From Desulfovibrio sp. (GTDB lineage: Bacteria; Desulfobacterota; Desulfovibrionia; Desulfovibrionales; Desulfovibrionaceae): a stretch of 64,000 nucleotides of DNA. Every line of letters begins with the position of its first letter. Positions within the stretch are counted from its first letter, which is position 1. Of the stretch, positions 1,571 to 62,455 are shown one piece after another. The notes under the pieces were generated by a model that saw only the letters and a list, made by a program, of their open reading frames with translations, made no database searches and had not been told where the DNA came from. A program made the translations under genes and the position numbers. The DNA is taken from the NCBI GenBank assembly GCA_024699605.1, contig JAILPJ010000071.1, forward strand, positions 6,882 to 70,881, given 5' to 3'.

Positions 1571-1625
1571 TATACCTTTTTCAGCGTGGAAACCCCGGAC
1601 TATGCGGGGAGGATACGCTGCCTCC
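1571..1625 (-). promoter_or_regulatory. Structured 5'UTR element, copy 1 (upstream of rrf2)
   Basis: Minus strand: GGAGG CAGCGT ATCCT CCCCG-catagtc-CGGGG TTTCC ACGCTG AAAAAGGTATA ATG. GGAGG is 50 nt from the ATG. Confidence 0.8.
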
Positions 1626-1938
1626 AAATATCACCTTAATTCTTATCGCTCAGAGAAACAAATGTGCGCTGTGATCCTCAACGGATGACAAAAACGATTC
1701 TTTTCTGACTAACGACTGCACACAAGCATAGAGCTTTTCTCTAACCGCTCAAGGTGTACCATGGAGAGCGTATTTGATCTAGATCTTTTGTTTTTTGGCA
1801 AATGCGCTTGTGCAAAAAAAACTGAAATATCAGTACGTTGGCGGCACAAAAAAACTTTGTTCAGGGACCTGGCCGAACCTTTTCCACAAGACTTGGACAA
1901 AGACGCCCTTGTGCCCACCGTGATGCAAGGAAGATGAC

Positions 1939-1969
1939 AAAGGCCGTGTCGAAATACGACACGGCCTTT
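1939..1969. terminator. Intrinsic terminator hairpin downstream of hmcF
   Basis: AAAGGCCGTGTCG-aaata-CGACACGGCCTTT, a perfect 13-bp inverted repeat 57 nt past the hmcF stop. Confidence 0.75.
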
Positions 1970-2025
1970 GTTTATGGTAGGCGATTAGCGCAAAACTTGG
2001 CTTTTGCCAAAGTGAGCACTAAAGC

Positions 2026-3411
2026 TTAGGACTCAACATGTTCAATATTCGGAGGAATTTCCATCATATTAATGAGCAGCGGCTTGAGGAAGCTCCACTT
2101 GATATTGTGCTCTTCATAGACTTCCATCATATCACGAATAGCATCCCAGCAGTTATGGCAGGGAGTAACAACCATTTCAGCGCCTGTGGCACGGATTTGA
2201 TCGAGCTTATTCTTCAGCCCAATATTGCGCTCCTTGCGATAACGGCCAATGCCGTTCATACCGCCACCGCCACCGCAGCAGAAATTATGCTCATTGTTCG
2301 GATCCATTTCACGGAAGTCCTCGGCAATATACGACATAATTTCGCGCGTATAGCGGCCCAGCCCATCATTACGAACATAGTTACAAGCGTCCTGCAATGT
2401 GCAGGGCATCTTAAGCTTTTTCTCGGGATTGATCTTCAGCTTACCCGTACGCAAAACATGGGCGACCCATTCCACATAGTGCATAAAGGGCACCGGCGGA
2501 TCTCCGCTTTCACGTCCTGCCCAGTACGGACCTTCAACAACTGTGGCTCTGTGAGCATGACCACATTCCGTACCTACGACAACTTTTGGCTTCAGACGTT
2601 CCACGGCTTCGTAGATACGCTTGATATTCATGGCACAGCCTTCAAAGTCGCCAGCGAACATGGTTAAGGACGTATTCTCCCAGCCCACACGGGGAACCGT
2701 CCAGTTGGTGCCGGTAACATGGAAGAGAATGGCTGCCTGAGCCAGATCTTCAGGATAGTGCTTGGGCTCACGAGCATTACAGATGTACATGACATCGGCG
2801 CCGACCTTTTCCACGGGAATCTCAAGGCCAGGCCATTCATCGGAATTCTCGTCTGCCATCCATTCACAGGTATCGACCCAGTCTTCCTCTGTGACATCCA
2901 TCTGGGCTCCGTAAACACGGTGCATGCCAGAGCCGATCTTCATCTCCCAAGGAGTGAAGCCCTGCTTGAAGAGGACGCCACGCAAATAGCTGAACATGAC
3001 ACCGGTATCAATGCCGTGCGGACAGTACATGCCACAGCGATTACAGCAGGTACACTGACCCCAAGCGACATCCATGCAGTGCATCATAAATTCAGCATCC
3101 ACTCGACCGTTGCGCTTCAGCAGCTCACCCAGAGTCGACTGAATCTTGTAGGAGGGAATCTGTTTGGGATCGTTATTATTGGTCTTGTAGAAAAAGCAGC
3201 TGTCAGCACACATGCCACAATGCGCACAAATATTTAACCATGTGCGCGTACGGGATTTACAGGTCGATTGTAAATCATAAGCCAAGGCATCTTGATTGAC
3301 CTTGAGCTGACGCATTTGCTTATAGTATTCGGCACCGCCTTTATCGGCCAAAAGCTCGTGAATCGCTTCCTTGGTGGTCAAGGGTGCCGGAGAGCACAAA
3401 ATCTGAGACAT
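2026..3411 (-). CDS. hmcF: HmcF-like cytoplasmic Fe-S protein (HdrD/DsrK family, CCG domains)
   Basis: [11 protein letters not shown] and [14 protein letters not shown] ferredoxin motifs, [18 protein letters not shown] and PCHNC. Strong resemblance to Desulfovibrio HmcF. AAGGAG RBS before MSQIL. Confidence 0.88.
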
Positions 3412-3450
3412 GATGAACTCCTTGCAAGAAGCCAAAAAGACCGTTTGACC

Positions 3451-4137
3451 TTACCAGGGGAAGACACCACCGCGGGCGCGACCGCCACGCTTAATGGCAT
3501 AATCCATACCCAGCTGAGCCCGGGACATGAAGAAAAGGACAATGTGAGCGAGCTTGGTGAAGGGGGCGAGGACCAAAAAGAGTTCGCCTGTGATCACATG
3601 TAAAAGCAGCCAGGTATCGTAGGCATTCGCATCAAACTTGCACATCAGACCTGTGAAAAAGGGCATGAAGGTCAAAAGCAGGACCAACCAGTCCTTCCAG
3701 GTATTCAACTGACGCAAGACAGGAGAAAAAAGACGGCGCAGCACCAGAAGACCTAAACCGGCCAGACTGGCAATGCAAAGGATATCAGCCACGTTGGGCG
3801 GCAGAGAAGGCAAGGAGATCCCTGTGGTCTCTTCAAGAAGCACCGTGTGCCCGAGCAGGAAAAGAGGAATCAAGACGGCACCGAAGTGCAGCAGGAAAAA
3901 AGCCAGCATAGCCACAGGCTGAGCACGCCAGCCAGCGGTTCCACCGGGCAGAAGCCATTTACCAATGGAAGCCAAGGCTCCCGATACAGAACGATCCCTG
4001 TGGTAGGCGTAGGCGACCCGTTCAAGCCGCCAGTCGAGACCACGCACATACCAGACCGCACGCGCCAGGAGACCAACAACAAAAATAAGCAATGAAGCCA
4101 CAAAACATGGGCCTGAAAGTGTTTGCAACATGAGCAT
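3451..4137 (-). CDS. hmcE: HmcE-like membrane cytochrome b (NarI family)
   Basis: YVRGLDWRLERVAY, FFLLH, GHTVLL, LLHVITGELFLVLAPFTKLAHIVLFFMSRAQLGMDYAIKRGG match HmcE. His heme ligands present. Confidence 0.88.
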   Translation of the reverse strand: MLMLQTLSGPCFVASLLIFVVGLLARAVWYVRGLDWRLERVAYAYHRDRSVSGALASIGKWLLPGGTAGWRAQPVAMLAFFLLHFGAVLIPLFLLGHTVLLEETTGISLPSLPPNVADILCIASLAGLGLLVLRRLFSPVLRQLNTWKDWLVLLLTFMPFFTGLMCKFDANAYDTWLLLHVITGELFLVLAPFTKLAHIVLFFMSRAQLGMDYAIKRGGRARGGVFPW

Positions 4138-4156
4138 TCATCTCCTCAAGGCAGAG

Positions 4157-4558
4157 TTACTTGTTGTTCGCTCCAAGCGAGGCGGCCTCGACATGACAAG
4201 CACGACACTGCACCAAAGCCGGCCCTTGACCGCTCTTGCTGTGACAGCCGGTACAGGACTGGTGCAAATACGAAACCTGATTTCCCGCCTTCTGCAGACG
4301 GGCATCAGAAAACGCCGTAGACAAACCTTGCTTGGTCACTCTGTGGCAACGTGAGCAGTCACTGCCATGTTCATCCACATAGTTGACATGTTTTGTGTGA
4401 TTAAAAATGACCTTGGGCAGAGAGGGATTGGCGATAGCTGGAAAAGAAACCGTCAATATTTCGTCACTCTCAGCACTCTGGGAAGAAGTGGCAACCAATA
4501 CCAATAGGAGGAGACTACAGCAGAAGGCGCATGCGCTCCTCAGCGTGATGATGGGCAT
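4157..4558 (-). CDS. Exported triheme cytochrome c resembling the N-terminal domain of HmcA
   Basis: Signal peptide, LPKVIFNHTKH, and three CxxCH motifs (CSRCH, CTGCH, CRACH). GAGGA RBS before MPIIT. Confidence 0.85.
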   Translation of the reverse strand: MPIITLRSACAFCCSLLLLVLVATSSQSAESDEILTVSFPAIANPSLPKVIFNHTKHVNYVDEHGSDCSRCHRVTKQGLSTAFSDARLQKAGNQVSYLHQSCTGCHSKSGQGPALVQCRACHVEAASLGANNK

Positions 4559-5215
4559 AAAGTATCCTCGGAACGGGCGCAGACCCGTCAGCATGTCAGA
4601 AAAGGTCTGAAAGAACACCGAGCAAGATCGCACGTTGCAGCGACTCTCGATCCGTACAACGTGTAGGCAAAGCCCCCGACATTACGAAAAATCGTACACA
4701 AGAAGAGACGTGATCTTACGCGCGCCAAACAAACCATCTGGTTTCGCCGTCTGCTACGGCTTCTGCGAGGCGCAGAACACGAATGTCACTTACCGCGGAT
4801 AGCAAAACCCACGGCAGTACATGGGTACTCTTGGGCCGATATCTAGTCTACTCACTTTTGAGTCGGTACACCTCCTGCGGTTTGGCTGACTAGGAGTAAA
4901 GCCGGCAACAACTCCACATATCTAAAAAACATTGAGAGCAGACTACTGAGTACGAAAAAAGTCCCATATAATGATGCTTGTGTCAATCACATTTTCAAAA
5001 TTTGTCGTAAACTCTTTGCTCTGGACCAGAGTTTATGCCTTCCCAGCGTAAAAAATTGTCTGTGCAAGGACGAACTTAGGGCGCTGACCAAGCGCATTGA
5101 GCCACAAAGGACACGGGCGCTGTAGCCAACGGCGTCTTGGACTCAATCTGCCCTTATGCTAAAAAGAACTGTTGCTTGTGTACGTCACAGAAAACCTTCC
5201 AAGGCAAGGACAGTT

Positions 5216-6010
5216 ATGCTGCAAGAACACTTCACCCAACAGGGACAGGTAGTACTCATCGCCGGCGGCGGACGCATCTATACCGATATTGCAGCCCGCT
5301 TTGTGGCCAGCGAACGTTCTCTTGAAGATATTGTCGCTTCACCCTATTCCAAAAAAATCGTGCAAAACATTTTAAACAGCGGGCACCGCGCAGCACTTGA
5401 ATTTGACTATTTTCTTTTTGGTGTGGCCGGCTATTCTCGCGTTACAGAAACACAACTGGTACGGAAACGCTTGGCCTCCTACCTGATCAAATCAGGACGA
5501 GCTGAACTTGGCGGCAAAAGACAATTCTCCGTGGTTTATCCCAAAAGCATTGCCGAATTCTCCGCTGAGGTGACCTTGCCCGACGGTCACAAAGCCACGC
5601 TTTCAGGTCGAGATCTCGCTGAACTGACAAGTCAGTGGTATGACGCAGGTCTTGCCCAGGGACTGCCTGAAGAGGATCTCCGTTACCTCAAGCCTCAAGC
5701 CACTGAATTCAAGGCGATTATCGGCATGAATGCCCATGCCCTGCTCGACTGGTTTTCCATCCGCTGCTGCCGCAATGCCCAGCATGAAATTCGCGACTTG
5801 GCCTGGAAAATGCTCCGCCTCTGCAAAAAGGCCGCACCTGACCTGTTTGAGGGAGCCGGCCCCAACTGCGTACAACTGGGGTACTGTCCGGAAAACAGCA
5901 GACAAAATAAAGCCTGCCAGGGGCATATTCCCACCCGCGAGCAGGCCTTAACCTTGCTTAAGCAACATTGTACGCCTGAGATGCTTGAGAAAAACCGTCA
6001 GGGCTTTTGA
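5216..6010 (+). CDS. thyX: FAD-dependent thymidylate synthase (variant motif)
   Basis: GHRAALEF, GYSRVTETQLVRKRLASYLIKSGR, MNAHALLDWFSIRCCRNAQHEIR and GPNCVQLGYCPE. AAGGA RBS before MLQEH. Confidence 0.85.
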   Translation: MLQEHFTQQGQVVLIAGGGRIYTDIAARFVASERSLEDIVASPYSKKIVQNILNSGHRAALEFDYFLFGVAGYSRVTETQLVRKRLASYLIKSGRAELGGKRQFSVVYPKSIAEFSAEVTLPDGHKATLSGRDLAELTSQWYDAGLAQGLPEEDLRYLKPQATEFKAIIGMNAHALLDWFSIRCCRNAQHEIRDLAWKMLRLCKKAAPDLFEGAGPNCVQLGYCPENSRQNKACQGHIPTREQALTLLKQHCTPEMLEKNRQGF

Positions 6011-6107: not shown

Positions 6108-9100
6108 TTACGCAGGGGATTTGGGAACAGCAGACGTTTTTCGAGAAAAAATTTCACAAATACAGACAAAGAAGACCGGAATAAAGAAAATACCCAAACA
6201 GGTGGCCAAAAACGTACCGCCAATAATCCCTGTGCCAATGGCATGCTGACTGTTGGCTCCGGCACCATGACTTAAGGCCAGCGGCATAACTCCAAGTAAA
6301 AAAGCCATGGAAGTCATGATAATGGGCCTGAACCGCAAGCGTGCGGCTTCAAGGGCTGCATCGCGAAAGGATCTTCCCTCACGCGCCAGCGAGCGCGCAA
6401 ATTCCACAATGAGGATGGCATTCTTGGCGGAAAGCCCAATGACGGCAAGCATACCCACCTGAAAATAAATATCATTGTACAGGCCGCGCAGACTGCTCAG
6501 AGCCACGGCGCCCAAGACACCAACCGGCACGACAAGAATAACGGCAAAAGGAATGACCCAGCTCTCGTACAGAGCCGCTAGGCAGAGAAAAACCGTGAGA
6601 ATGGAAAGCGCGTAAAGGAGACCTGAACGGCCACTTGCGGACTTCTCCTGATAGCTCAAGCCCGTCCACTCAAGACCAATGCCATGGGGCAATTCGCCAA
6701 CCAGACGGACAAGTTCGTCCATGGCTGTGCCAGAACTCACGCCAGCAGCCGGCGACGCTTCAATAATGGTAGACTGAACGCCATTAAAGCGTTCCAGTTG
6801 GCGCGGGCCGTATGTCCAGCTGAGCTTCGCAAAGGCGTCAAGCGGCACCATACGCCCCTTACTGTTACGGAAATACCAATGACGCAAATCTTCAATAGTC
6901 ATGCGATACGGCGCGTCTCCCTGCACATAAACGCGTTTGACACGTCCTCTGTCCACAAAATCATTGACATATTCGCCGCCTAACGCCGCGGTCAGATCTC
7001 GGTTCACCTGATCTGAATTGAGACTGAAAACGCCCACTTTGTGGTCATCAATATCAAGGCGCAGCTGGTTGACGTCTTCCAGAGACGATGTTCGCAGATT
7101 AAAAAGCAGAGGACTTTGCCGACCACGCCTGAGCAATTCTTCGCGAGCAGCAATCAAGGCATCATAACCAAGGCCACCCTGATCTTCGAGCTGCATGGAA
7201 ATGCCAGAGGACAAACCAAGACCAGAGACCTGGGGCGGCATAAAAAAGACAATGCGGGCCCCGGCATGATCGAGGAACCGTTCTCTGGCTCTCGCCACAA
7301 TGGCTCCTGCGCTCTGTTCGTCCAAAGGCCGCTCGTCCCAAAGCTTAAGTTTGACATAGCCTGAAATGACATTTTGTCCCAAACTGCCATAAGGACCGAG
7401 TCCTAAGGTGCTGGACACTGAAACAATATTACGACCTTCATCGTTCAGAAAAAAATCTTCCACTTCTTTGACAATGGCCAGAGAAGATTCACGGGTGCCG
7501 CCAGGCGGCATAAAAATCGTATAGTGCAGGCGTCCCTGATCCTCAACGGGCAAAAAAGAACTGGGCATACTCCGCAGGGCTACAATGGTCACAACGCAGA
7601 GCAAAAGGTAAAGGAGCATGATCCGGCCCTTGTGATTGAGCCAGATCTGCTCAAAATGCAGGAATTTCTTTGAGCAGGCATCAAAGAGGCGATTGAACTG
7701 CTGAAAAAAATGCAGTTCTCGCCCATGCCCTTGATGAGCAAGCAAGAGCTTGGAGCAGAGCGGGGGCGTAATGACAATAGCCACAAAGACGGAAAGCAGC
7801 ATGGAGGCGATGATCGTCAGGGCAAATTCCCGGTAGATGGCACCGGTAATGCCTGAAAAAAAGACCATCGGCAGAAAAACCGCGCTGAGCACCACTGCCA
7901 CACCGATCAAGGCGCCTGTTATCTGCTGCATGGATTTGATGATGGCGGCATGAGGATCGAGATGTTCGGTGTGAATGATGCGCTCAGTATTCTCGACAAC
8001 CACAATGGCATCATCCACAAGCAGACCAATAGCCAAAACAAGACCGAACATGCTCAAGGTATTGATCGAGGACCCCATAACCGCCATGACGGCCATGGTG
8101 CCAGTGAGCACAATGGGGACAGCAAGGGTCGGGATCAGTGTAGCCCGCCAATTCTGAATAAAAAGCAGCATAACCGCCGCCACAAGAGCAATGGCCTCCA
8201 AAAGCGTACACAGCACATTGTGAATCGACTGACGCACAAAGGGCACTGAATCAAAGGAGACCTGGCAGGTCAGTCCAGGCGGGAAAAAATTCTCCATGCG
8301 TTCCATAAACGCCTGCACGCGGTCCGCGGTTTCCACGGCATTGGCGCCTTCAGCCAGCTGAATACCCACGGAAACCGCGGGTTTGCCATTAAAGCGGGAG
8401 GTCAAAATATAGGTCTGCAGCCCCATTTCCACACGTGCCACATCGCGGATTCGAACCACGGATCCGTCTTCATTGACATGCACGACAATGGCAGCAAATT
8501 GGTCAATATTTTCCAGTTTGGACCGGGAAATGAGGGTGACGTTGATCTCCTGACCAGGCGTTGCTGGCAAACCACCGATCTGTCCCACGGAAATCTGCTC
8601 GTTTTGAGACTCTACGGCTTTGACAACATCACTGGGAGTTAAGGAAAACGATCGCAGCTTATGGGGATCAAGCCAGATACGCATGGCGTATGGCGAGCCA
8701 AAGAGCGTAGCATCACCGACCCCGTCCACACGACAGAGTGGGTCCAAGAGCACGGAAGCGACAAAGTCACCTATCTCTTCAGCGGGAAGGCGACCTGTGC
8801 TGTCGAGGAAAGCATAAAAATTCAGGAAGGTGTCAGAAATTTTGCGGACCCGAATACCCTGATTTTTGACGGTTTCGGGCAAAAGCGGCAGGGCGAGCTG
8901 CAAACGGTTCTGCACCTGCATCTGCGCCATGTCCGGATCGACTTCCGGCGCAAAGGTCAGGCGCATACGCATACGGCCTTCAGAACTGCTGGTGGTGGAA
9001 ATATAGAGCAGGTCATCAAGCCCAGTCATTCGCTGTTCAATGACCTGCGCGATGGAATCCTGCATGGTACGGGCCGAGGCACCGCTGTAATCGACGATCA

Positions 9101-9233: not shown

Positions 9234-9236
9234 AGG

Positions 9237-17914: not shown

Positions 17915-19114
17915 CTAGGCTTGCACTATCACCTTCAGAAAACGCTTTTTACCAAGACGAATCACATACTGACCTTGCGCAAATGGGGTCTGCGCGTCTT
18001 CACAGCGTGTTCCATTGACTGTCAGAGAGCCCGATTTAATCAAGCGGCGGGCCTCACTGCGGCTTTTGACAAGACCTGCGGCTTCCAAAAAAGCCACCGG
18101 CGTTGACGCCTCTCCATAGGCGCAGGTCCATTCCTCAATATCTGTGGGGACACCGCCTGAGGCAAATACACTGGCAAACTCCTGTCGAGCCGCCTGAGCC
18201 GCTTCTTGGCTGTGATAACGTGTGATGATCTCCTCGGCAAGATTCTCCTTGCAGGTCTTGGGATGGAGATCGCCCTGTTCCACACGACTTTTCATCCCGG
18301 CGATTTCTTCAAGACTTTTTTCCGACAAAAGTTCATAGTAGCGCCACATCAACTCATCGGAAATCTTCATAAATTTTCCGAACATTTCTTTCGGCGTTTC
18401 ATCAATGCCAATATAATTTCCATACGATTTTGACATTTTTCTCACGCCATCGAGTCCTTCAAGCAGAGGCATAGTCAGAATACACTGAGCTTCCTGTCCA
18501 TACTGCCCCTGCAAGGTGCGGCCCATGAGTAAATTGAACTTTTGATCCGTACCACCGATTTCTACATCGGTATGCAAACTCACGGAATCGTAACCCTGGC
18601 AGAGTGGATAAATAAATTCATGAATCGAAATGGGACGTTTTTCACGATAGCGCTTTTCAAAATCGTCTCGTTCCATCATCCTAGCCACCGTATAGCAGGA
18701 AGCAAGCTTAATGAAGCCGGCGGCATCGAGCCGGGAAAGCCAGTGGGAATTGAATTCCACCAAAGTCTTCTCAGGATCAAGAATTTTAAAGACCTGTTTT
18801 TTATAGGTCTCGGCATTCGCCAGAACCTGCTCTCCGGTGAGCGGGGGACGGGTTTCCGAACGCCCGCTGGGATCGCCAATCCGTCCGGTAAAATCGCCGA
18901 TCAAAAAAACGACCGTATGCCCCAGCTGCTGAAAATGCCGCATTTTCTGCATAATCACGGTGTGCCCGAGGTGCAAATCCGGTGCTGTGGGATCAAAGCC
19001 GACTTTGACACGCAAAGGTGTTCCACGTTCAAGTTTCCGTTTGAGCTCATCCTCATCAATGAGCTCCACCACGCCACGTTTAATTAAAGCAAGCTGTTGT
19101 TCAAGATCTTTCAT
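17915..19114 (-). CDS. tyrS: Tyrosine--tRNA ligase
   Basis: [13 protein letters not shown] (HIGH), [14 protein letters not shown]-terminal S4 domain. Confidence 0.97.
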
Positions 19115-19169
19115 CAGAAATTCAGCGTGGATACCCCATCCTGAAGAACGGGGAGGAAACGCTGCCTCC
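19115..19169 (-). promoter_or_regulatory. Structured 5'UTR element, copy 2 (upstream of tyrS)
   Basis: Minus strand: GGAGG CAGCGT TTCCT CCCCGTTC-ttca-GGATGGGG TATCC ACGCTG AATTTCTG ATG. 50 nt from GGAGG to ATG. Confidence 0.8.
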
Positions 19170-19526
19170 GGTATTTCGCAGTATCATCATCCCGGGCAAA
19201 TGCCCGTAGCCATAGCCATCGGTACGCTTGAGCAGCAGGTCTGACTGGTCCGTCAGCCTTGACGCTGACAAAAACAGCCTTCGCCAAACAAAAATACGGC
19301 CAGAACGCCAAAGCGCAGTTTGACTATCAAGTCAATTCGCCTATGCGTTACCTATCGCAGCACAGGCTGTCAAGCCAAGGAATACACCAGAAGCGTGGGA
19401 AAAGCCCTTCAACATGGGTTATTTGCTTGCAACTTGCGGTTCTGTTGACTATAATAGTCCATTCTTGTCTAGGCTTGCGGACGCGGCCACGGCTTTTTTT
19501 TTTCACTTTCCACGTCGAGAGTCATC

Positions 19527-37260: not shown

Positions 37261-40200
37261 ATGGAGTTCAACAACGCGCCAGTGACCCTTTTCGAAGTTA
37301 GCTGGGAAGTCTGCAACAAGGTCGGCGGAATCTATTCTGTCGTCAGTAGCAAGGCTCTGAAGTCGCGCGACATTTTCAACGACAGATACTATGTCCTTGG
37401 TCCTCTTCTCCAGCACAATTCAGGTTTTGAAGAAACCGACGAACCGATCTGGGATAAAATCCGAGCTGCCCTCACAGAAAAAGAAATCACGGCCAAGCTC
37501 GGCAGATGGATGATTCCCGGCAATCCCCGGGCAATCCTTGTGGATTTTGCCAAACGCTACGATTCCAACCAACTGCTCTATGAGCTGTGGAAAAACTTTG
37601 GTGTGGATTCGCTGTCGGGCGGTTGGGACTATATTGAACCGGTGATGTTCTCCACGCTCTGCGGAGAAGTGATCGGAGCTATTCACGAGGCCAAAGTCGT
37701 CCCCAAAAACGGGCACTCAGTCGCGCTCTTCCACGAATGGATGTGTGGTGCTGGTCTGCTCTGGCTGAAAAAGAACCATCCCAGTGTGGGCACGGTCTTC
37801 ACAACCCATGCCACCATGCTCGGGCGAGCCATGGCTGGCTCAGGCAGTGATATTTACTCCAATCTGCGCAACATCAATCCTGCAACTGAAGCCGCCGCGC
37901 ACAATATCACGGCCAAATGGTCCATGGAGAGCACCAGCGCTCGCGAAGCCGATGCCTTTACCACGGTGAGCAATATTACCGGTGAAGAAAGCGCCGTTTT
38001 CCTCGGTCGCCAACCCACGGTGATCACCACCAATGGCCTCGACATGCGCGTTATTCCCGATTACTCACAAAAGCGTGACATCCCCAACCAACATCGCGCA
38101 AAGATTCTCGAAGTTTCTCAGCGCTTTTTGCGTACCGATCTGCCTGAGAATACCAAGATCATCGCCATTTCCGGCCGTTATGAGTACCACAATAAGGGCG
38201 TGGACATTTTCCTGGAAGCCATCGCGCGCGCCAATGTCAATCTCGCCGGCAACAATGACACCTGCATTCTTGCTCTCTGCCTGGTCATGGGCGGACACAC
38301 GGGTGTCAATGAAGACGCCATTTCCGGTAAGCCCGATGCCTCTGACAATGGACTCCCCTTCCTCTGCACCCACTTTGCCTGGAATGCGCCCAATGACGCC
38401 ATTATCACCAATTGCCGACGTCTCGGACTGAACAATCGCGCAGCAGATCATGTCAAAGTGATTTTTGTGCCAGCCATGCTCGACGGCAATGATGGCTTTT
38501 TCAATATGAAGTATGAGGAAATCCTGCAGGCCTGCGATGCCGGTTTCTTCCCCTCATGGTACGAGCCGTGGGGCTATACACCGCAAGAATCGGCGGCTTG
38601 GGCTGTGCCCACCTTTACGACAGATCTTTCAGGCTTTGGTATCTGGGCCAAGCAGAAGATGCAGGAAGACGACTGCGACTATCCCGGCATCAAAATTTTG
38701 CCCAGGCGCGGTCGCAGCTTTTCTGAATGCGTGACCGTGCTGCATCAAAATCTGCTCGACCTGACCACCAGCACACCTGAGGATTTTGCTGTACTTCGCC
38801 GTTCAGCCAGGCTTTTGGCCACCAAGACTGACTGGAACTTCTTCTACGACAATTACTGTAAGGCCTTCTCTGTGGCGCTGAGCAAGGTCGACGCCCGCGT
38901 TGAGCGCCCCTCTTCAGCGCGTGAAGCCTTAAACCGCGTGCTCACAGCCTCATCCTCGGCGACACCTTTCTTGCGCTCCATTCTGGCGGTCGCCGAAATT
39001 CCCAAGGCCCTGATCCGGCTGCGCGATCTGGCCCAAAATCTTTGGTGGTGCTGGAACAATAAGGCCAAAACCCTCTTCAGTGATCTCAATCCCCAGGCCT
39101 GGGCCAAGAATCACAATCCCATCCAAGTCCTCGAAGAAACCGATCCTGAGCGTATCAACGCCATGATCTACAATCAGGAGTACATGAAGTGTTACGATGA
39201 GGTTGTGGCGGCTTTTGACAGTTACATGGCGCAGCCTCTGCATGCCCAATCCGATCATGTCACTCCCAAGCATCCCATTGTCTATTTCTCTACGGAATAC
39301 GGCCTCAATGAGTCGGTACCCATTTACTCGGGTGGTTTAGGCGTACTTTCGGGCGACCACTTAAAGTCCGCTTCAGATTTGGCCATTCCCCTGATTGGCA
39401 TTGGCCTGCTCTACCGCAAGGGCTATTTCAAACAGTACATAGATCTCTCAGGCCGCCAGGTTGCCGAATATCCGGTCAATAAGTTCGCCCATCTTCCCAT
39501 CCGACCCATGCTCAGTGAAGAAGGTGAGCCACTCATGGTGCAGATTGATCTGCCCGGCCGCACCCTCTACGCGCGCATCTGGAAAATGCAGGTGGGTCGT
39601 ATCCCCCTCTATCTGCTTGATTCCGATGTTGACAAAAACACGCCGGAAGACCGCGAAATCACGGCCAATCTCTATGTGGGTGACCGTGAAACCAGGCTTC
39701 TGCAGGAAATTCTGCTCGGCATCGGTGGTATCCGCCTGCTGCGCAAGCTCAATCTTGAGCCGCATGTCTATCACATGAATGAAGGTCACTCGGCCCTGCT
39801 CGTCATTGAGCGCCTTACCGAATGCATGAATATGGGCATGAGCTATGCTGAAGCCTCCAAGCGCGTTTGCTCCAACACGCTCTTCACTACCCATACCCCG
39901 GTTGCTGCGGGCAATGAAGCCTTCTCGCTGGAAATGATGCAGCGCTATCTGGGCAGCGTGGCCGCCCGTCTTGGTCTTTCCTGGCAGCAATTTGCCCAGC
40001 TCGGTCAAATGGAAGGCTCCAATCCCCAGCAGTTTGAAATGACGATCCTCGCGCTGCGTTTCTCGCGCTGGAGCAATGGTGTCAGCCGTCTGCACGGAGT
40101 CGTGGCCAGGCATATGTGGAATAAGCTCTGGAAAAACCTGCCACTGACCGAAGTTCCCATCTACCACGTCACCAATGGCGTGCATACGCCATCGTATGTG

Positions 40201-45072: not shown

Positions 45073-45148
45073 GGGCCTGTAGCTCAATTGGCAGAGCCTC
45101 CGGCTCATAACCGGCAAGTTCCAGGTTCAAGTCCTGGCAGGCCCACCA
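45073..45148 (+). tRNA. tRNA with CAT anticodon, probably tRNA-Ile2 (lysidine type); elongator Met not excluded
   Basis: 76 nt; acceptor stem GGGCCTG/CAGGCCC, T-loop TTCAAGT, CAT at 45106-45108, encoded CCA. Lacks initiator hallmarks. GGGCCT start and A37-A38 favour Ile. Confidence 0.9.
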
Positions 45149-47671: not shown

Positions 47672-48796
47672 TCAAACCAGTCCCATTTCTTGCAGAATAT
47701 GGGCCGCAACAACTTCGGCATCAAAAAGCGTTTGCGCACGTTTGCGTCCATTATTGCCCATGACCTGCACCTGTTCAGGATGTTCACAAAATTCTTCCAT
47801 AGCCTGCTTGAGGGCCTCGACATCACGCACGCTGACCAGCCGGCCGTTTTCTCCGTCAACGACCACTTCACGGCAACCAGGAGCATCGCTGACAATGGCG
47901 GCCCGTCCCGTACTCATGGCTTCCATGACGGCCGTGGGCGTACCTTCCCGCCACGAGGGCAAAACAAGCACATGACACGCTCGAAGATAGGGACGAACAT
48001 CCTGCGTCTGTCCAAGATACTCAATAACACCGGCCTTTTGCCAGCCTAAAACTTCATCCACGGGCACACAGCCAGGTCCGTGCTCTTCCGGACCGAGAAT
48101 CTGAAAGCGGGCTTTGGGGAAACGCGCCTTGACGGCACGGGCTGCAGCAAAATACTCACGCAGCCCCTTGGCTTCAAGCAGGCGACCAATGAGCAAAAAG
48201 ACCGGATTCTCCGCCTCGGGCAAAAGCGGGGGAGCATAGGCAAAACGCGCTGTATCCACGCCAGTGCCCCGAGCAAAAAGCACTCGGGCCGATTCATCGA
48301 GAATACCTTGGCTTTGAAAAAGAGCCGCATCATCGGGATTTTGAAAAAAGATTCCTTGGGCAAAACACAAGGAATGCCGATAGAGGAATGCCGTGAGAGC
48401 ATGCAGCAGACGCTTGGCGGCTGAATCCGCCTCAAAGGTATAGCCTAGGCCGGTAATCGTAGCATAAATATGCGGGACATGCCGCAGACGAGCTGCCAGA
48501 CAGCCGTAGATCACAGGTTTGATGGTGGAAGTGAAGAGCACCTCACAGTCTTCTTCCCGCAGAATTCGTAAAAGCTGCAAAAAGGTTTTGATATCCTGAA
48601 AGGGATTGAGCCCCTTACGGGCAAGATAATAGGTGCGCACGACCCCGTTTTCTGCAAGTGCGTCTAAGTCTGAAGCCTCACCGTCAGCCGGGACGCAGAC
48701 AACGACCTCATGACCGGCAGCCCGCATCTGACGCATCAGCACGGTCCAGAAATTGCGTACGGCCCGGGCCTGATTTCCCAAAACTAGTACTTTCAT
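47672..48796 (-). CDS. GT4 glycosyltransferase (PglA/WbpU-like)
   Basis: TIKPVIYG, TITGLG, FQNPDD, GTGVD, GRLLEAKG, LPSWREGTP. Confidence 0.88.
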   Translation of the reverse strand: MKVLVLGNQARAVRNFWTVLMRQMRAAGHEVVVCVPADGEASDLDALAENGVVRTYYLARKGLNPFQDIKTFLQLLRILREEDCEVLFTSTIKPVIYGCLAARLRHVPHIYATITGLGYTFEADSAAKRLLHALTAFLYRHSLCFAQGIFFQNPDDAALFQSQGILDESARVLFARGTGVDTARFAYAPPLLPEAENPVFLLIGRLLEAKGLREYFAAARAVKARFPKARFQILGPEEHGPGCVPVDEVLGWQKAGVIEYLGQTQDVRPYLRACHVLVLPSWREGTPTAVMEAMSTGRAAIVSDAPGCREVVVDGENGRLVSVRDVEALKQAMEEFCEHPEQVQVMGNNGRKRAQTLFDAEVVAAHILQEMGLV

Positions 48797-48851
48797 CAGC
48801 TATTTCAGCGTGGAGCCTCTGTTCCGAGGACTGGGAGGAAACGCTGCCTCC
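48797..48851 (-). promoter_or_regulatory. Structured 5'UTR element, copy 3 (upstream of GT4)
   Basis: Minus strand: GGAGG CAGCGT TTCCTCCCAGT CCTC-ggaaca-GAGG CTCC ACGCTG AAATAGCTG ATG. 50 nt from GGAGG to ATG. Confidence 0.8.
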
Positions 48852-49207
48852 AATAACGATATTTTTGGCCATTTCTAGCCACACGAGCCTGTGTCTAACG
48901 CCTATCAGCCCAGCCTTTCCCTAAGACGGCAAAGGAAATTTGATTGCCTTGTGGCTATCACCTTTTCCCGCCTTTCTCAAGCGCAGCGGGCAGGCTTGCA
49001 TAGCGCTTCGAAATGCTCTAAAGCTTGTCTTTTCGGGTTCCTCTTACGTTTGTGAGGGATTTGCCAGTACAAGGCTTGTCCTCTCCAAGCACAGGTTCTC
49101 GCTTCTTCGCCACAGTCCAAGAAGTTCCCGTCCCCCACGACATGGCCGCAGCCTTGTAGCACTCTCAGAGGTCGGACGGACATGCTGATCAATACAGGAA
49201 AAACAAC

Positions 49208-49263
49208 GGAGGCAGCGTTTCCTCTCAGGCTTTGCGTCTGAGGTTTTCACGCTGAAATACGTA
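49208..49263 (+). promoter_or_regulatory. Structured 5'UTR element, copy 4 (upstream of WbpP-like epimerase)
   Basis: GGAGG CAGCGT TTCCT CTCAGGC-tttgc-GTCTGAG GTTTTC ACGCTG AAATACGTA ATG. 51 nt from GGAGG to ATG. Confidence 0.8.
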
Positions 49264-50289
49264 ATGACCGCCTTTACTCAATGTTCCGAGCAGATCCAAA
49301 AAAAACCTGAACACTGGCTGATCACCGGTGTAGCTGGTTTTATCGGCTCCAACCTTTTAGAAACCCTGCTCAAACTCGGTCAAAAAGTGACCGGCCTCGA
49401 CAATTTTCTCACAGGCTACCAGAAGAATCTTGATATGGTGGAAAAGCTTGTGGGACCAGAAGCCTGGAAAAATTTTACCTTTATTAAAGGGGACATCCGC
49501 GATCTTGCAACCTGCCAAAAGGCCGTGCAAGGAGTTCAACATGTACTCCATGAAGCGGCCCTAGGCTCAGTACCCCGTTCCATTGCCGATCCGCTGCTCT
49601 CCAACAGCTGCAATATCGACGGTTTTCTCAACATGCTTTTGGCCGCACGCGATGCCAAGGTGGAGAGTTTTGTCTATGCCGCCTCATCTTCCACCTACGG
49701 AGATTCCACAGAACTACCCAAGGTGGAAGACAAAATCGGGCATCCCCTTTCTCCTTACGCGGTCACCAAATACGTCAATGAACTCTATGCGGATGTCTGT
49801 GCTCGCTGTTATGGTTTTCAAACCATCGGTCTGCGCTACTTCAATGTTTTTGGTCAACGTCAGGATCCCTACGGAGCCTATGCCGCCGTCATTCCCCAGT
49901 GGTTTGCGAGCATGCTGAAGAATGAAACGGTCTACATTAACGGTGATGGCGAAACCACACGCGACTTCTGCTATATTGATAATGTTGTGCAGGCCAATCT
50001 TCTGGCCAGCATGGCTTGTGAAACGGCCAAAAACAAGGTTTACAATGTCGCCTTTGGCCAACGCATCACGTTAAACGAGCTTTTTTCAGCTATTCGCGAC
50101 GAAGTCGCCCGTCACAGGCCCGAGGCTGCTGAGATGACGGCCACCTACCGTGATTTCCGGGCAGGCGATGTCAGACATTCTTTGGCCGACATCACCCGTG
50201 CCAAAACGCTTCTAGGCTATGCCCCCACTCATGATGTTCGCTCTGGCCTTCGTCTGGCAGGCGATTGGTACGCCGCCAATCTTTCCTGA
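49264..50289 (+). CDS. UDP-GlcNAc 4-epimerase (WbpP/TviC-like extended SDR)
   Basis: [55 protein letters not shown]. Confidence 0.9.
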
Positions 50290-58052: not shown

Positions 58053-58081
58053 CAATAGGCATAAACGACAACTATCAGATC

Positions 58082-58543
58082 ATGCGAGTGCTTGGCATTG
58101 ACTACGGGCTGGAACGCACAGGCCTTGCCGTTTCCGATCCCTCAGGCAAAGTCGTCTTTCCGCTCAAAACCCTGCGTCTGGCCGATTTTGGCACAAGAGC
58201 GGCTCTGCTGGATGCTCTTGCCGATACGATTCACAATACCGATGTCGAAGCCTGCGTTGTGGGTCTACCCCTTCCTCTTGAAGGCGAGGAAACACTGATC
58301 TGCCGTCAAATCCGTAATGTGACACGACGCCTGATGCGTCGTGTCATGCTGCCCTTTTATTTTATGAATGAAGCCCTGACCTCGTATCTGGCTTGGGAAG
58401 ACCTCAAACAGAGCGGCGTAAAGGCTCGCAAACGTCGCGACGTTCTGGATCAGCAAGCTGCTGTCCGTATTCTGCAGGCTTTTCTGGCTGAAGCGGAGAA
58501 GCAGGGCCCAAGCTTTCTTACGCAGGCGCAGGTCCAAGCTTGA
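58082..58543 (+). CDS. ruvX: YqgF/RuvX-family nuclease
   Basis: LGIDYG...GLAVSD, VVGLP, NEALTS, DQQAAVRILQ. Confidence 0.92.
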   Translation: MRVLGIDYGLERTGLAVSDPSGKVVFPLKTLRLADFGTRAALLDALADTIHNTDVEACVVGLPLPLEGEETLICRQIRNVTRRLMRRVMLPFYFMNEALTSYLAWEDLKQSGVKARKRRDVLDQQAAVRILQAFLAEAEKQGPSFLTQAQVQA

Positions 58544-58565
58544 AAGAATCTGCCGAAATGAGAGG

Positions 58566-59666
58566 ATGGCGGTGAAACACCCTGTTCTGCGCGTCTGTTC
58601 CCTACTCTTCTTAATCCTATTGTACGCAGCCGGCTATTTAGGCCTCAGGGCCTGGACGTTTCTGCACGAAGCGCCAGAAGCCGATGGCCGTGAGGTTTTT
58701 TTCGACGTCTTGCCAGGAGCCCGTCTGGGCAATGTTGCACGACAACTCTTTGAAGCCGGCCTGATCACCGATGAAAAAGCCTTCGTATGGCTTGCTCGTC
58801 TCAACCAGGAACACAATCAACTGAAGGCCGGACGCTTTGCCCTGAATACGGGTTGGCTGCCCGAAACCGTGCTGGCAACACTGGTTCATGGCAAACCGGT
58901 GCTCTACCGCATCACCGTACCCGAGGGGCTGACCCTCTGGCAAACAGCCAAATTGCTCGAAACACAGGGCTTTGTGCGGGCTGAAATCTTTCTGAATGTG
59001 GTCACAGACCCAACGTTTCTCACCAATTGCGGTATTCCCCTGCCCAGTGCCGAAGGTTTTCTCATGCCTGATACCTATCTGCTCAAAAAAGATGAGGCAC
59101 AGGACAATCCGAAGCCAAAAACAAGCGAAACGACAGAGCCCTCGGTATCTCCTGAACGTAAGCAGGCCACGAACATTGCCCGACGTCTTGTGGATAATTT
59201 TTGGAGCAGGGCAGAAAGCCTCTGGCCTGGAAACAAACGGCCACAAGCCGATCAGCTCAAACGCTGGGTGATTTTAGCTTCCATTGTGGAAAAAGAGACC
59301 TCCCTTGAAGAAGAGCGAGCACGCGTGGCCGGTGTTTATGCCAACCGACTGGCCAAAAATATGCTCCTGCAGGCTGATCCCACTGTCATTTATGGCTTAG
59401 GACAAAAGTTTTCAGGGCGTCTGCTCTACCGGCATCTTGAGGATCTCAAAAATCCGTATAATACCTATCAGCATGCGGGTCTGCCCCCCGGTCCCATCTG
59501 TTCCTTTGGCATGAGTGCCCTGAAAGCGGCTATTTCCCCTGAAGCCCACAACTTCCTCTATTTTGTGGCACAAAGCGAAGGCAAGGGACACGTCTTCTCA
59601 CGCACTCTTGAGGAACACAACAAAGCCGTGCAAAAATACCGGCAGAGCAAAAAGAAGCCCAATTAA
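58566..59666 (+). CDS. mltG: Endolytic transglycosylase
   Basis: TVPEG, EGFLMPDTY, LASIVEKET, NRL...LQADPTVIY, NPYNTY...GLPPGPI, LYFVA. Confidence 0.94.
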   Translation: MAVKHPVLRVCSLLFLILLYAAGYLGLRAWTFLHEAPEADGREVFFDVLPGARLGNVARQLFEAGLITDEKAFVWLARLNQEHNQLKAGRFALNTGWLPETVLATLVHGKPVLYRITVPEGLTLWQTAKLLETQGFVRAEIFLNVVTDPTFLTNCGIPLPSAEGFLMPDTYLLKKDEAQDNPKPKTSETTEPSVSPERKQATNIARRLVDNFWSRAESLWPGNKRPQADQLKRWVILASIVEKETSLEEERARVAGVYANRLAKNMLLQADPTVIYGLGQKFSGRLLYRHLEDLKNPYNTYQHAGLPPGPICSFGMSALKAAISPEAHNFLYFVAQSEGKGHVFSRTLEEHNKAVQKYRQSKKKPN

Positions 59667-59695
59667 CGGCCAGAGACGGGCAAAGGATTGAAACC

Positions 59696-59953
59696 GTGAA
59701 GTACATTATTGTGGAAGATTTTTCAGGTCAGGAAGTGCCTTTTATTTTTCCCCGCAGGGTTGATCACAGTGATATGCGCGAGCAGCTTCCCTACGGCAAA
59801 ATCGTCTCGGCAGGCTATGTCGAGCTTGGCCCTCAGGGTTTTTTCTGCTCAGGCGGTGATCGCGAACTCAACGTCAAGGCAAGGCCTGAAGCTGACGCTC
59901 TCATCCTCAAGGAAGCACTGCGCCAACGTCCCAAGGCAAACACTATCTCGTAA
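59696..59953 (+). CDS. Small hypothetical protein
   Basis: 85-aa ORF, MKYIIV...PFIFP...H...VSAG...C.G, co-oriented after mltG. Confidence 0.7.
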   Translation: MKYIIVEDFSGQEVPFIFPRRVDHSDMREQLPYGKIVSAGYVELGPQGFFCSGGDRELNVKARPEADALILKEALRQRPKANTIS

Positions 59954-60052
59954 GCCTTGCCGCCCATGAAAAATGCGGTCCCTTCAGATCATCAGGCAAC
60001 GTCCTGCTGTTCAGCCGCCGAAAATTTCTACCTTTTGATTCAAGAGACACTG

Positions 60053-60107
60053 GGAGGCAGCACGTCCGCCTCGGCGTAATGACGAGATCTCTGTGCTGAA
60101 ATAGCTC
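60053..60107 (+). promoter_or_regulatory. Structured 5'UTR element, copy 5 (upstream of cbiA), with compensatory changes
   Basis: GGAGG CAGCAC GTCCGC CTCG-gcgtaatga-CGAG ATCTCT GTGCTG AAATAGCTC ATG. 50 nt from GGAGG to ATG. Confidence 0.8.
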
Positions 60108-61523
60108 ATGAACTTGCCTCAGTCTGGTTTTCTCGTGGCTTCCAACGCCAGCCATGCCGGAAAAACCAGCACTTGTCTTGCTCTGATCGCTGCACTGAAC
60201 AGACGAGGCCTTATCATCCAACCAGCCAAATCTGGTCCTGATTTCATTGATACCAGTTATCTTGCCGCTTTTGCCCAACGCCCCTGTGTCAATCTTGATC
60301 TCTGGCTGCTTGGCAAAAATGGGGTGATGCGCCTTCTGCAACGGCTACAGCGTCAAAACACAGCCCCTGCAGCCGACCTTCTTCTCGTTGAAGGGGCTAT
60401 GGGGCTCTACGACGGCGGTCTGGGCTCAAGTTTTGCCCTGGCCCGCGCCCTCAAGCTACCAGTACTCTTACTGCTCAATGTTCAAGGCATGGGGGAATCT
60501 GTGGCAGCCCTGGCTCAGGGTTTTTTAGCCCAGGCCGAGGGAAAAATCGCCTTTGCAGGCCTGATACTCACCCATACGGGCAGTCATACGCATCAAGCGC
60601 TTCTGACTCGAGCCCTTCGCCGCATTACCAAACAATACCGTGTGCCACTTCTTGGTTTTTTGCCAAGATCCGGTTCCCCTCAGATTGCCTCTCGTCATCT
60701 TGGCCTTGTGGATATTGCGGAAAGTCTGCCCGAACTTGACCAGCAAGCCATGGCTGACTGGTTTGAAAAAAACGTAGCCCTCGATCGACTCCTCAAAAAT
60801 CTGCGTATCCCCTGCCAAAAAAAGTCACAGCCGGCTTCTACTCCCTCACTTTGCGTCCAGCACGTGGCATCATCCAAAAAAGCTCGTATTGCCATAGCCC
60901 ATGACCGTGCCTTTTCTTTTTGCTATGCTGATCTGCCGTTATTTTTCACAGAGCAGGGCTTTGAAGTGCGTTTTTTTTCTCCCCTTATGGATCAAGCTCT
61001 CCCTGCCTGTGAGGCTATCTACCTTCCTGGCGGCTATCCTGAACTTTTTGCCCATGAACTTGCTGCAAACAGCAGCATGATCAAGTCGTTGACTTGCGCG
61101 CAGGCCGAGAATATCCCCATCTACGGAGAATGTGGCGGCTATTTGTATCTTTTACAGGAGCTTGAGCTTCACAATGGCACAACTGTGCCCATGGCGGGCC
61201 TGTTGCCTGGAAAAGCTGTGATTTGTAGCCAACTCCAGGGCTTAGGCTACCGCCTGGGAGATCTGATCTGGGATATTTTTGCATTGGGCCAAACAATTCG
61301 GGTACGCGGCCATGAATTCCACTACGCACGAGTGCTTACTCAGAGCACAAGCCCCCTCTGGTTGCTGCACAATAAACAAAAAAAGCCTCTTGGCCCTTCT
61401 GGCTGTACCAAAAAATTCACAGCAGGAAGCTTTCTGCATCTTCCCGTAGAAGGCAATCGCAGCTTCTGGCGTGCCTGGCTTTCCCTGGCTAGCCAAGTCA
61501 AAGGGAGAACGCCATGCCAGTAA
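60108..61523 (+). CDS. cbiA: Cobyrinate a,c-diamide synthase
   Basis: HAGKTS, KSGPDFID, VEGAMGLYDG, SRHLGL, YLPGGYPE, YGECGG, GHEFHY. Confidence 0.9.
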   Translation: MNLPQSGFLVASNASHAGKTSTCLALIAALNRRGLIIQPAKSGPDFIDTSYLAAFAQRPCVNLDLWLLGKNGVMRLLQRLQRQNTAPAADLLLVEGAMGLYDGGLGSSFALARALKLPVLLLLNVQGMGESVAALAQGFLAQAEGKIAFAGLILTHTGSHTHQALLTRALRRITKQYRVPLLGFLPRSGSPQIASRHLGLVDIAESLPELDQQAMADWFEKNVALDRLLKNLRIPCQKKSQPASTPSLCVQHVASSKKARIAIAHDRAFSFCYADLPLFFTEQGFEVRFFSPLMDQALPACEAIYLPGGYPELFAHELAANSSMIKSLTCAQAENIPIYGECGGYLYLLQELELHNGTTVPMAGLLPGKAVICSQLQGLGYRLGDLIWDIFALGQTIRVRGHEFHYARVLTQSTSPLWLLHNKQKKPLGPSGCTKKFTAGSFLHLPVEGNRSFWRAWLSLASQVKGRTPCQ

Positions 61524-62173
61524 CACTTTCCCACGCTCTTGATACAGCACAAAGCCCCAAAGCTATTGAAGAGCGCTCTTTTGCCCTGATCGACGCTATG
61601 CTGCCACCTCCCCGGCCCTTTTCGGGACGTCTCTGGGAAATTGCCAGACGTTGCATCCACACCAGCGGCGATACCACAATCCTGGCAGACCTGCGTCTCA
61701 GTGAACAAGCGCTGAATAGCGGTCTTGCCGCCTTGCGATCAGGCTGTACCATTTATACCGATACGCGTATGGCCAAGGATGGCCTGCCGCTCAGACGCCT
61801 GGCTCCGCTCCAATGCCACACGCTTGCACTCATGGAGCTTGACGGTCTTGAGGCTCTGGCTCAAGAACACGGCACAACCAGAGCCCATGCGGCCGTCAAA
61901 AGCATTCAAGATCAACTGGGAGGGCAAATTGTGGTCATCGGCAATGCCCCCACAGCCCTGCTCTGCCTTCTTGACTGCCTCAAACAGGGAGCTCCCTGCC
62001 CTGCCCTGATCGTGGGTATGCCCGTGGGTTTTGTCAATGCGGCCCAGTCCAAAGAACTTCTGGCTCAGAGTTCCTATCCCCATTTTACGCTGCTGGGTAC
62101 CCGGGGCGGATCAGCGCTAGCAGCCTGCTGTGTCAATGCCATGGCCGAAATGCTGCACAACGAGATATGCTGA
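61514..62173 (+). CDS. cbiC: Precorrin-8X methylmutase
   Basis: IEERSFALID, RCIHTSGD, GTTRA, IGNAPTAL, GMPVGFVNAAQSK, GGSALAA. Confidence 0.93.
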   Translation: MPVTLSHALDTAQSPKAIEERSFALIDAMLPPPRPFSGRLWEIARRCIHTSGDTTILADLRLSEQALNSGLAALRSGCTIYTDTRMAKDGLPLRRLAPLQCHTLALMELDGLEALAQEHGTTRAHAAVKSIQDQLGGQIVVIGNAPTALLCLLDCLKQGAPCPALIVGMPVGFVNAAQSKELLAQSSYPHFTLLGTRGGSALAACCVNAMAEMLHNEIC

Positions 62174-62204
62174 AACTAACGCCAATCATCTCTCTCTTTG
62201 AAGA

Positions 62205-62247
62205 CGGCGTGGCCCTTGGGGTACCAACACCCTGCAACGCTTCTTCC
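62205..62247 (-). repeat. Degenerate orphan copy of the 5'UTR element
   Basis: Minus strand: GGAAG AAGCGT TGC AGGGTGTTGGTACCCC AAGGGCC ACGCCG. Only 4 bp of the outer stem remain and there is no downstream ORF. Confidence 0.4.
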
Positions 62248-62397
62248 CAACGGCCTAAAACAGGGGGCGCTTCGGCAAAAGAGCTGGGCCTTCAAGCAGC
62301 CAGAATGGCGACGAAACAGTCCAGGCTGCTTCATGGACCCTTCTGCCGGCTGAGCGTCGGCTCAGACGGCTATTCATACCAATCCAGGAAAAACAGC

Positions 62398-62455
62398 GGA
62401 GGCGGCGTTTGCGCTCCGTCCTCAATGGCGGGGTTTCCACGCTGAAAAAAGCAAG
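62398..62455 (+). promoter_or_regulatory. Structured 5'UTR element, copy 6 (upstream of ispH)
   Basis: GGAGG CGGCGT TTGCG CTCCGTC-ctcaat-GGCGGGG TTTCC ACGCTG AAAAAAGCAAG ATG. 53 nt from GGAGG to ATG. Confidence 0.78.

Follow-up and report, generated by a model that had tools for sequence, protein, structure and literature searches.

Why do six functionally unrelated genes, all lying within 64 kb of one Desulfovibrio genome, carry the same hairpin-containing repeat directly before their start codons? The question arises in a stretch of 64,000 nucleotides (positions 6,882–70,881 of contig JAILPJ010000071.1, assembly GCA_024699605.1; henceforth the window, i.e., this stretch at its full length), where an earlier note, made from the DNA sequence alone, had proposed a novel, stand-alone cis-acting RNA family containing a 'split' ribosome-binding site. 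Reading the six copies directly, we found that each consists of GGAGG, a 6-nt arm P1a (CAGCGT, CGGCGT or CAGCAC), 27–30 nt with CCTC(C) and a variable hairpin, a second arm P1b (ACGCTG or GTGCTG), an A/T-rich spacer of 8–11 nt, and ATG. All six copies were thus located where the note had placed them and with the architecture it had described, and this was equally the outcome of a pattern search (GGAGGCRGCR..YGCTGAA; 6 matches in the window vs. 0 in 100 shuffles) and of a covariance model (R1), which with filters off returned exactly these six copies and no weaker ones. The identities given for the downstream genes also agreed with Pfam, which assigned them to Rrf2, TyrRS, GT4, NAD-epimerase, CbiA/CobB and LytB/IspH.

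The repeat is the left end (LE) of an insertion sequence (IS) of the IS200/IS605 family, read on the outward-facing strand, and its fixed position before ATG results mainly from a target motif, (T)TCAT, and not from regulatory design. In our preferred explanation, to which we assign a probability of roughly 0.7, each element is the LE of such an IS, left as a short relic or miniature derivative without genes, and now supplies a bridged Shine-Dalgarno (SD) sequence to a host gene.

A genome-wide repeat family at start codons

The window is part of a 2.76-Mb assembly (114 contigs, 51.5% G+C), which was expected from the six copies to contain many more and does: a strict regular expression recovered 67, a covariance-model search at least 111 (with 150 of 611 candidates scored) and an nhmmer profile search 113. 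The copies serve approximately 4% of genes in the genome. Directly after 110 of the 113 nhmmer copies we found a start codon opening an open reading frame (ORF) of at least 60 amino acids, while the three exceptions have a damaged GGAGG. The proposed enrichment at a fixed distance from start codons is also evident from the spacing, given that the end of P1 lies 6–11 nt from ATG in 79 of the 81 copies examined (mode 8); GGAGG ends 33–70 nt before ATG, corresponding to 38–75 nt when measured from its start (mode 55). None of the 81 copies has GGAG, GAGG or AGGA at positions -16 to -4 of the ATG; the note had seen no SD near the ATG in five of its six genes, and a weak AAGG in rrf2. Within P1, all copies have a subterminal hairpin, P2, and some have a further hairpin approximately 30 nt upstream. 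The GGAGG-to-ATG architecture therefore stands as described, but the element does not begin at GGAGG: conservation runs approximately 12–20 nt further upstream (aGGAAAAACAAC).

The repeat is the left end of an IS200/IS605-family transposon

We carried out an exact-pattern scan covering 185,579 species and obtained matches in several rumen Desulfovibrio metagenome-assembled genomes, in a Desulfobulbus from a termite gut and in a bin of 6 Mb that is labelled 'Gracilibacteria'. The motif occurs in 18 of 111 species of the genus, a few of which have dozens of copies, and in three genomes of another family of the order; in both groups the matches often lie at contig ends. We found that the motif forms the terminal ~75 nt of multi-copy IS200/IS605-family elements in related Desulfovibrio, in the other family and in the 'Gracilibacteria' bin, which is cyanobacterium-like, and that the full-length elements carrying it encode either TnpB, or IscB together with a HEARO guide RNA.

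The TnpB type is seen in genomes G065 and G064, where six contig ends share an identical repeat up to ...GGAGGCGGCGC..GCGCCGAATATTTGATGAA, beyond which the flanks diverge. An ORF (MKRTISMKLL...) opens on the opposite strand at 48 nt upstream of GGAGG and, on another contig, runs on into TnpB (NF040570, 209 bits; PF07282; PF01385), and the right end (RE) that follows consists of a hairpin (CCGCCCTTCAGGGCGG) and a tail (GGTTGTTTACGC) with a sharp boundary. Genomes G212 and G148, from the other family of the order, have the same TnpB-type layout, with one copy at the start codon of a lipoprotein gene and one in plain intergenic DNA. The IscB type is represented by G114, in which HEARO RNA (RF02033, 101.8 bits) is followed by a 428-aa IscB, then by the motif, which overlaps the iscB end, and then by ...TTTTTG/ATGAAC (the slash marking the element boundary), the ATG beyond the element opening a lipoprotein gene. 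Identical copies break contigs in G065, G114, G212 and the cyanobacterium-like bin (SU_1_2), and all full-length copies end in ...TTG/ATGA(A), with the flanks diverging after this point. The RE of the full-length elements has a hairpin as well, but no GGAGG and no outer helix of the P1 kind.

This organisation agrees with what has been described for IS605-family elements of Geobacillus, in which a transposon-adjacent motif (TAM) lies 5' of the LE (TTCAT in the case of the IscB element ISGst5), IscB reads from the RE towards the LE, guide RNAs are built from the RE and transcribed from outside the element, and insertion creates no target duplication; gene-less derivatives, called palindrome-associated transposable elements (PATEs), exist as well (Meers et al., 10.1101/2023.03.14.532601).

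The proposal of a novel, stand-alone RNA family accordingly gives way to an IS end, a match that the note itself had named as contrary evidence and that the full-length elements of relatives provide. A comparison with Rfam turned up no known family for the element, whether at the gathering score anywhere in the window or, near copies 3 and 4, at a limit of E<=10. A structured regulatory RNA or protein-binding site that stands on its own, has no connection with mobile DNA and was spread by selection would account for the strong covariation (see below) and sequence conservation. Nevertheless, such an origin is highly improbable considering that the motif is physically part of TnpB/IscB insertion sequences in at least four other genomes, that its distribution is patchy and crosses phyla, and that the target-site signature ATGA(A) is present. 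One practical consequence is that repeats of this kind can be mistaken for riboswitch-like RNAs; another is that the left-end sequence and its TAM are of help in defining which TnpB and IscB elements of gut Desulfovibrio are active.

In IscB elements (loci L109:1456-1530 (-) and L095:239-286) the iscB frame ends inside the motif, with GGAGG encoding Gly-Gly and the stop codon in the P2 loop, and copies differ by a frameshift at the iscB end. The SU_1_2 bin (JAAUUT01, 'Candidatus Gracilibacteria'; loci L042, L052, L055, L056, L065 and L074), at 6 Mb and with GCGATCGC (HIP1-like) repeats, is probably cyanobacterial rather than a member of the candidate phyla radiation (CPR), i.e., mislabelled or mis-binned; six of its contig ends share a common 125-nt transposon terminus. 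Similarly, a 2-kb contig assigned to 'Lachnospiraceae' RUI374 (JAILRC010000027, L060) has two motif copies and is ~72% similar to contig C45 of the Desulfovibrio genome; it probably comes from a Desulfovibrio and was placed in the bin of a Firmicute.

Copies in the genome lack intact transposon genes

By contrast with those relatives, the genome that contains the window has no TnpB, and IscB is present there in fragments only, so that neither tnpB nor iscB is intact; the six copies in the window show no linkage to tnpB, iscB, tnpA or a guide RNA. No two genome copies are identical (best interior identity 92%, median 53%). The ~113 copies are old and appear to be domesticated.

One copy, on contig C48 (31212-32161; locus L087), stands beside a decayed IS region with an IS200-type TnpA fragment and an IscB fragment, and this region is likely the fossil of a full-length element in this genome. 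On contig C98 (23380-23739; locus L084) there is an intact gene for a 159-aa Y1 (IS200-type) transposase, with a different end hairpin of its own (CGTGACTTTGGTCACG). We considered this resident IS200 as the source of the repeat and rejected it, as its left-end hairpin is a different sequence and TnpB is absent. Finally, on contig C24 (reverse-strand offsets 39409-39537) two copies stand in tandem, the upstream one decayed (AGGTGG) and followed by ATGAACAGTCATTCA and then an intact copy, which points to more than one insertion at the same gene start.

A palindromic hairpin, GTCTGATCAG-n-GATCAGAC, occurs approximately 12–15 times in the genome, almost always ~30 nt upstream of a GGAGG of the CGGCGT/ACGCCG type (contigs C11, C17, C28, C49, C57, C63, C65, C93 and C98; e.g., C57:15296 and C65:5015). 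It is unlike the RE of the full-length elements and may represent the second end of a mini-transposon without genes. When we aligned filled and empty orthologous sites, the intergenic DNA was too diverged for the far boundary of the element to be placed, and no excision joints were seen in metagenome DNA contigs.

The target motif places the repeat before ATG

Since the repeat always ends in ...TTG before ATGA(A), we take (T)TCAT to be its TAM; and as (T)TCAT is the complement of ATGA(A), this motif accounts for the adjacency to start codons. In the genome, ATGA follows 92% of copies compared to 25.5% of ordinary SD-led genes, and ATGAA 67% compared to 8.9%. The sequence TGATG is found at the start in 48% of copies vs. 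6% of ordinary genes, and shows the transposon terminus ..TTG. It follows from the ATGA(A)/..TTG signature that the ATG is the host gene's own start codon, and that everything 5' of it is transposon.

Other readings of this junction were tried and rejected. A hammerhead-like core, brought to mind by the recurrent CUGAUGA at the start codon, has no stem II or III and no Rfam match, and TGATGA recurs because the transposon terminus (..TTG) meets the target ATGA. An integron attC site is not compatible with the lack of R'/R'' core sites, nor with the genes being syntenic core genes. As regards a leader peptide or upstream ORF, already judged unlikely in the note, no start codon follows GGAGG and hairpin length varies without a 3-nt periodicity.

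Conserved helices and predicted fold

To assess the pairing we used a model-based alignment of 77 sequences from three or more species. We found that 96.8% of P1/P2 cells are paired and that two-sided changes number 52, compared to 9.4±2.6 in shuffles, whereas sliding the partners abolishes pairing. P1 alone occurs as CAGCGT/ACGCTG, CGGCGT/ACGCCG, CGGCAT/ATGCCG, CAGCAC/GTGCTG, CGGCGC/GCGCCG and CGGCGA/TCGCCG. Judged from this covariation, P1 and P2 are real helices with compensatory changes. The minimum-free-energy fold (ViennaRNA) includes all six P1 pairs in 67 of 86 sequences, arranged around a symmetric UUUCC/UUUCC internal loop and P2, while GGAGG has at most two bases paired in 49 of the 86 folds and is fully paired in 14, with inconsistent partners. 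Both covariation and predicted fold thus support the formation of P1, which the note had claimed, with GGAGG left mostly unpaired beside the spacer and AUG.

The fold is also strand-biased. Specifically, the mRNA strand folds more stably in 53 copies and the complementary strand in 26 (Wilcoxon p=1e-4), and there are 90 G·U pairs on the mRNA strand vs. 36 on the other. It is the complementary strand that carries the TAM, and which should be the strand handled by TnpA.

These folds bear directly on the two-state translational switch proposed in the note, in which temperature, a ligand or a protein would decide whether GGAGG pairs with an internal CCUCC (off) or is presented by P1 (on). Such a switch would be compatible with a transposon origin; moreover, GGAGG-N8-CCUCC is an inverted repeat in most copies, J1 (UUUCC, between P1a and P2) is 95% conserved between orthologues, and an H-type pseudoknot using both helices is topologically possible. 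However, the fold predicted for most of the 86 sequences is P1+P2 and not the GGAGG:CCUCC hairpin, and with GGAGG fully paired in so few of them the folds do not have the character of an SD-sequestering switch or RNA thermometer. Furthermore, CCUCC is often altered (CCGCC, CCACC, CCTAC, TTCTCC) while GGAGG stays unchanged, the genes served have no function in common, the element is absent from the same genes in closely related species, and there is no Rfam match. We therefore regard the switch as improbable, and the claim for it is not upheld.

A putative bridged ribosome-binding site

We found orthologous genes that are filled in one species and empty in another, and in at least 12 cases the empty orthologue has GGAG, GAGG or AGGAG 5–9 nt before the same ATG. 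A genome copy that lost GGAGGCA has a new GGAG..AGGAG directly before its ATG. Many copies stand at orthologous genes in species whose coding DNA is 80–90% identical, but differ strongly in their P2 hairpins. In eight orthologous pairs, identity was 100% in the SD and both P1 arms, 95% in J1, 80% in the P2 stems, 71% in J2, 63% in the spacer and as little as 24% in the P2 loop, whereas the first 240 coding nucleotides were 87% identical. What is found at the starts with the element is what one would look for in a split SD: an SD distant from AUG, a predicted intervening helix that would restore the spacing, and no proximal SD.

Considering the SDs of empty orthologues, the pattern of conservation, the strand-biased fold and the RE without P1 or GGAGG, we favour the reading in which GGAGG and P1 function in the RNA, where they would provide the docked gene with a bridged ribosome-binding site. 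Of the two modes of action put forward in the note, structure-dependent initiation thus survives, in the form of a hairpin-bridged SD, as the most economical reading of the fold, the lack of any other SD and the SDs of orthologues; the two-state switch does not.

The proposed course of events is as follows. Because of the TAM, (T)TCAT, elements of this kind land directly 5' of start codons, and the insertion separates the gene from its own SD. As the LE carries an outward-facing GGAGG, a stable P1 + P2 hairpin and an 8-nt A/T-rich tail, P1 in the chimeric mRNA would set GGAGG at ~8–11 nt plus one helix width from the host AUG, so that the gene would still be translated. The native SD would then decay, after which the LE could no longer be lost. 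Selection on GGAGG and on P1/P2 pairing would keep the LE, even as erosion removed the nuclease gene and the remainder of the transposon.

Alternatively, the copies may be purely selfish DNA. On this account GGAGG, P1, P2 and the TTTCC loops are needed by TnpA in single-stranded DNA, the copies, or mini-transposons built from them, are still mobile or only recently immobile, and the genes are translated in another way (e.g., through the A-rich spacer with protein S1, or by SD-independent initiation). Copies within the RGIG6612 genome with near-identical hairpins and spacers at different loci would fit this account, as would the second hairpin at a fixed distance in one subfamily, which is the arrangement expected of a two-ended mini-transposon; in addition, quasi-palindromes can gain 'compensatory' changes through template switching without selection. 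By contrast, the RE, lacking a P1-like helix and GGAGG, implies that P1 and GGAGG are not generic TnpA requirements, and both the wobble pairs and the folding stability favour the strand opposite to the one expected for TnpA. Neither is recent mobility apparent from the genome, with its lack of identical copies and maximum interior identity of 92%. Finally, no proximal SD has re-evolved in the 81 copies, even though empty orthologues depend on one, and the copy lacking GGAGG did acquire one. Altogether, we consider a purely selfish role unlikely, though less so than the switch.

Several observations nonetheless weigh against a bridged ribosome-binding site. Active, full-length, multi-copy elements of distant hosts across phyla share the conserved GGAGG, P1 and TTTCC loops, which could thus be needed by the TnpA transposase rather than for translation. 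In elements of the IscB type, moreover, GGAGG is itself part of the last stretch of the iscB frame. Copies within RGIG6612 are more alike than their orthologues, meaning that apparent orthologous conservation may come in part from turnover or re-insertion at the same TAM. The short copies may be either solo left ends or complete mini-transposons. Only one contig from an RNA library (a single metatranscriptome run) covers part of the region (window positions 48887-49204); it stops at the repeat, has no strand or start-site information and could be DNA. The assembly has no 16S rRNA gene, hence the anti-SD sequence is not readable there. Finally, approximately 20% of non-coding ATGAA sites are start codons, yet 97% of copies are at starts. 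The explanation that we propose for this excess is retention: copies that serve as the only ribosome-binding site of a gene could not be lost, while others would decay or excise.

A broader proposal builds on the bridged SD, and we give it even odds. It holds that an IS200/IS605 lineage, comprising both TnpB and IscB types, evolved a portable bridged ribosome-binding site with which it docks on the starts of transcribed genes without silencing them, that decay of the native SD locks it in, and that it has replaced the initiation region of ~4% of genes in some rumen Desulfovibrio. For IscB types, docking would also provide the read-through transcription from the host that the guide RNA needs. 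The initiation regions replaced over time would include those of tyrS and ispH in the window, and of rplS and rpmJ, before which relatives carry the element. If translation is really driven by the transposon's GGAGG, a selfish element can strike a gene where it is most sensitive, at the start codon, and still be tolerated by bringing a replacement ribosome-binding site, and the genome offers a natural, genome-scale set of ~110 structure-bridged SD sites; to our knowledge, such sites have so far been known only from isolated phage genes.

Comparison with known systems

The closest relatives of the repeat are the TnpB/IscB elements of the IS200/IS605 family and PATEs (ISGst5). They are alike in having subterminal hairpins at both ends, a 4–5 nt motif, (T)TCAT, at the left end, and either TnpB on one strand or IscB and HEARO running from RE to LE, as well as in occurring as identical multi-copy elements in some hosts and as short, gene-less ones in others. 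They differ in that the left end described here adds an outward GGAGG and an extra outer helix, P1, and in that nearly all short copies here stand at the true starts of intact, partly essential genes, apparently as their only ribosome-binding site.

Hairpin-bridged, or 'split', ribosome-binding sites are known from genes 38 and 25 of phage T4, which likewise have an SD far upstream, a stable intervening hairpin and no proximal SD. Whereas in T4 individual genes are concerned and their hairpins are unrelated, here we have one family of ~113 copies that was delivered by a transposon and whose function would be the same. Outward-directed expression signals of insertion sequences are also known, e.g., pOUT of IS10 and the hybrid promoters of IS1 and IS2, and in these, too, a transposon end gives an expression signal to the adjacent host gene. 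However, those elements supply promoters, and the signal here would be one for translation initiation, held in a constant register with the start codon of the host gene. REP/REPIN, ERIC and Correia-type repeats resemble the family in their abundance, short hairpins and co-transcription with genes, but are not tied to start codons and have no SD, and the association here is with TnpB/IscB and not with RAYT.

In literature searches for split or bridged SD families, or for IS605 ends with outward ribosome-binding sites, we found no precedent. What is known is thus the IS200/IS605-family end, or PATE-like repeat; what appears to be new is its combination with a portable bridged SD that serves as the initiation region of ~4% of genes.

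Individual copies in the window

The copies in the window fall on both strands. On the reverse strand, copy 1 (1570..1640; 76.0 bits) precedes an rrf2-family gene and comprises GGAGG (1625-1621), P1a (1620-1615), P1b (1587-1582), a spacer (1581-1571) and ATG (1570-1568). Copy 2 (19112..19184; 75.7 bits) precedes tyrS, with GGAGG at 19169-19165, P1a at 19164-19159, P1b at 19128-19123, the spacer at 19122-19115 and ATGAAA from 19114. Copy 3 (48794..48866; 77.2 bits), also on the reverse strand, precedes a GT4 glycosyltransferase gene, with GGAGG at 48851-48847 and ATGAAA from 48796.

The remaining copies are on the forward strand. Copy 4 (49193..49266; 76.4 bits), before an NAD-dependent epimerase gene, begins with an A-rich leader (49193-49207), GGAGG (49208-49212), P1a (CAGCGT, 49213-49218) and J1 (TTCCT, 49219-49223), followed by P2 (49224-49242; CTCAGGC/GTCTGAG with loop TTTGC), J2 (49243-49248), P1b (ACGCTG, 49249-49254), the spacer (49255-49263) and ATGA (49264-49267); metagenome contigs of other copies enter and exit this stretch at 49188 and 49224. 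Copy 5 (60038..60110; 70.7 bits) precedes cbiA/cobB, with GGAGG at 60053-60057 and ATGAAC from 60108, and its P1 is the compensated variant CAGCAC/GTGCTG. Copy 6 (62383..62458; 75.7 bits) precedes ispH/lytB, with GGAGG at 62398-62402 and ATGAAT from 62456, and its P1 (CGGCGT/ACGCTG) contains one G·U pair. An extra hairpin lies upstream of copy 6 at approximately 62348..62369 on the same strand (CTGAGC-GTCG-GCTCAG, then ACGG); it resembles the GTCTGATCAG..GATCAGAC hairpin, with a correspondingly putative role.

At the rrf2-family gene (window 1151-1627, reverse strand) the longest ORF begins at a TTG within or upstream of the element, the real ATG being that of copy 1, and automatic gene callers may mis-place starts at copies such as this one. 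The sole Rfam match in the window is an ordinary tRNA gene at 45073-45145 on the forward strand.

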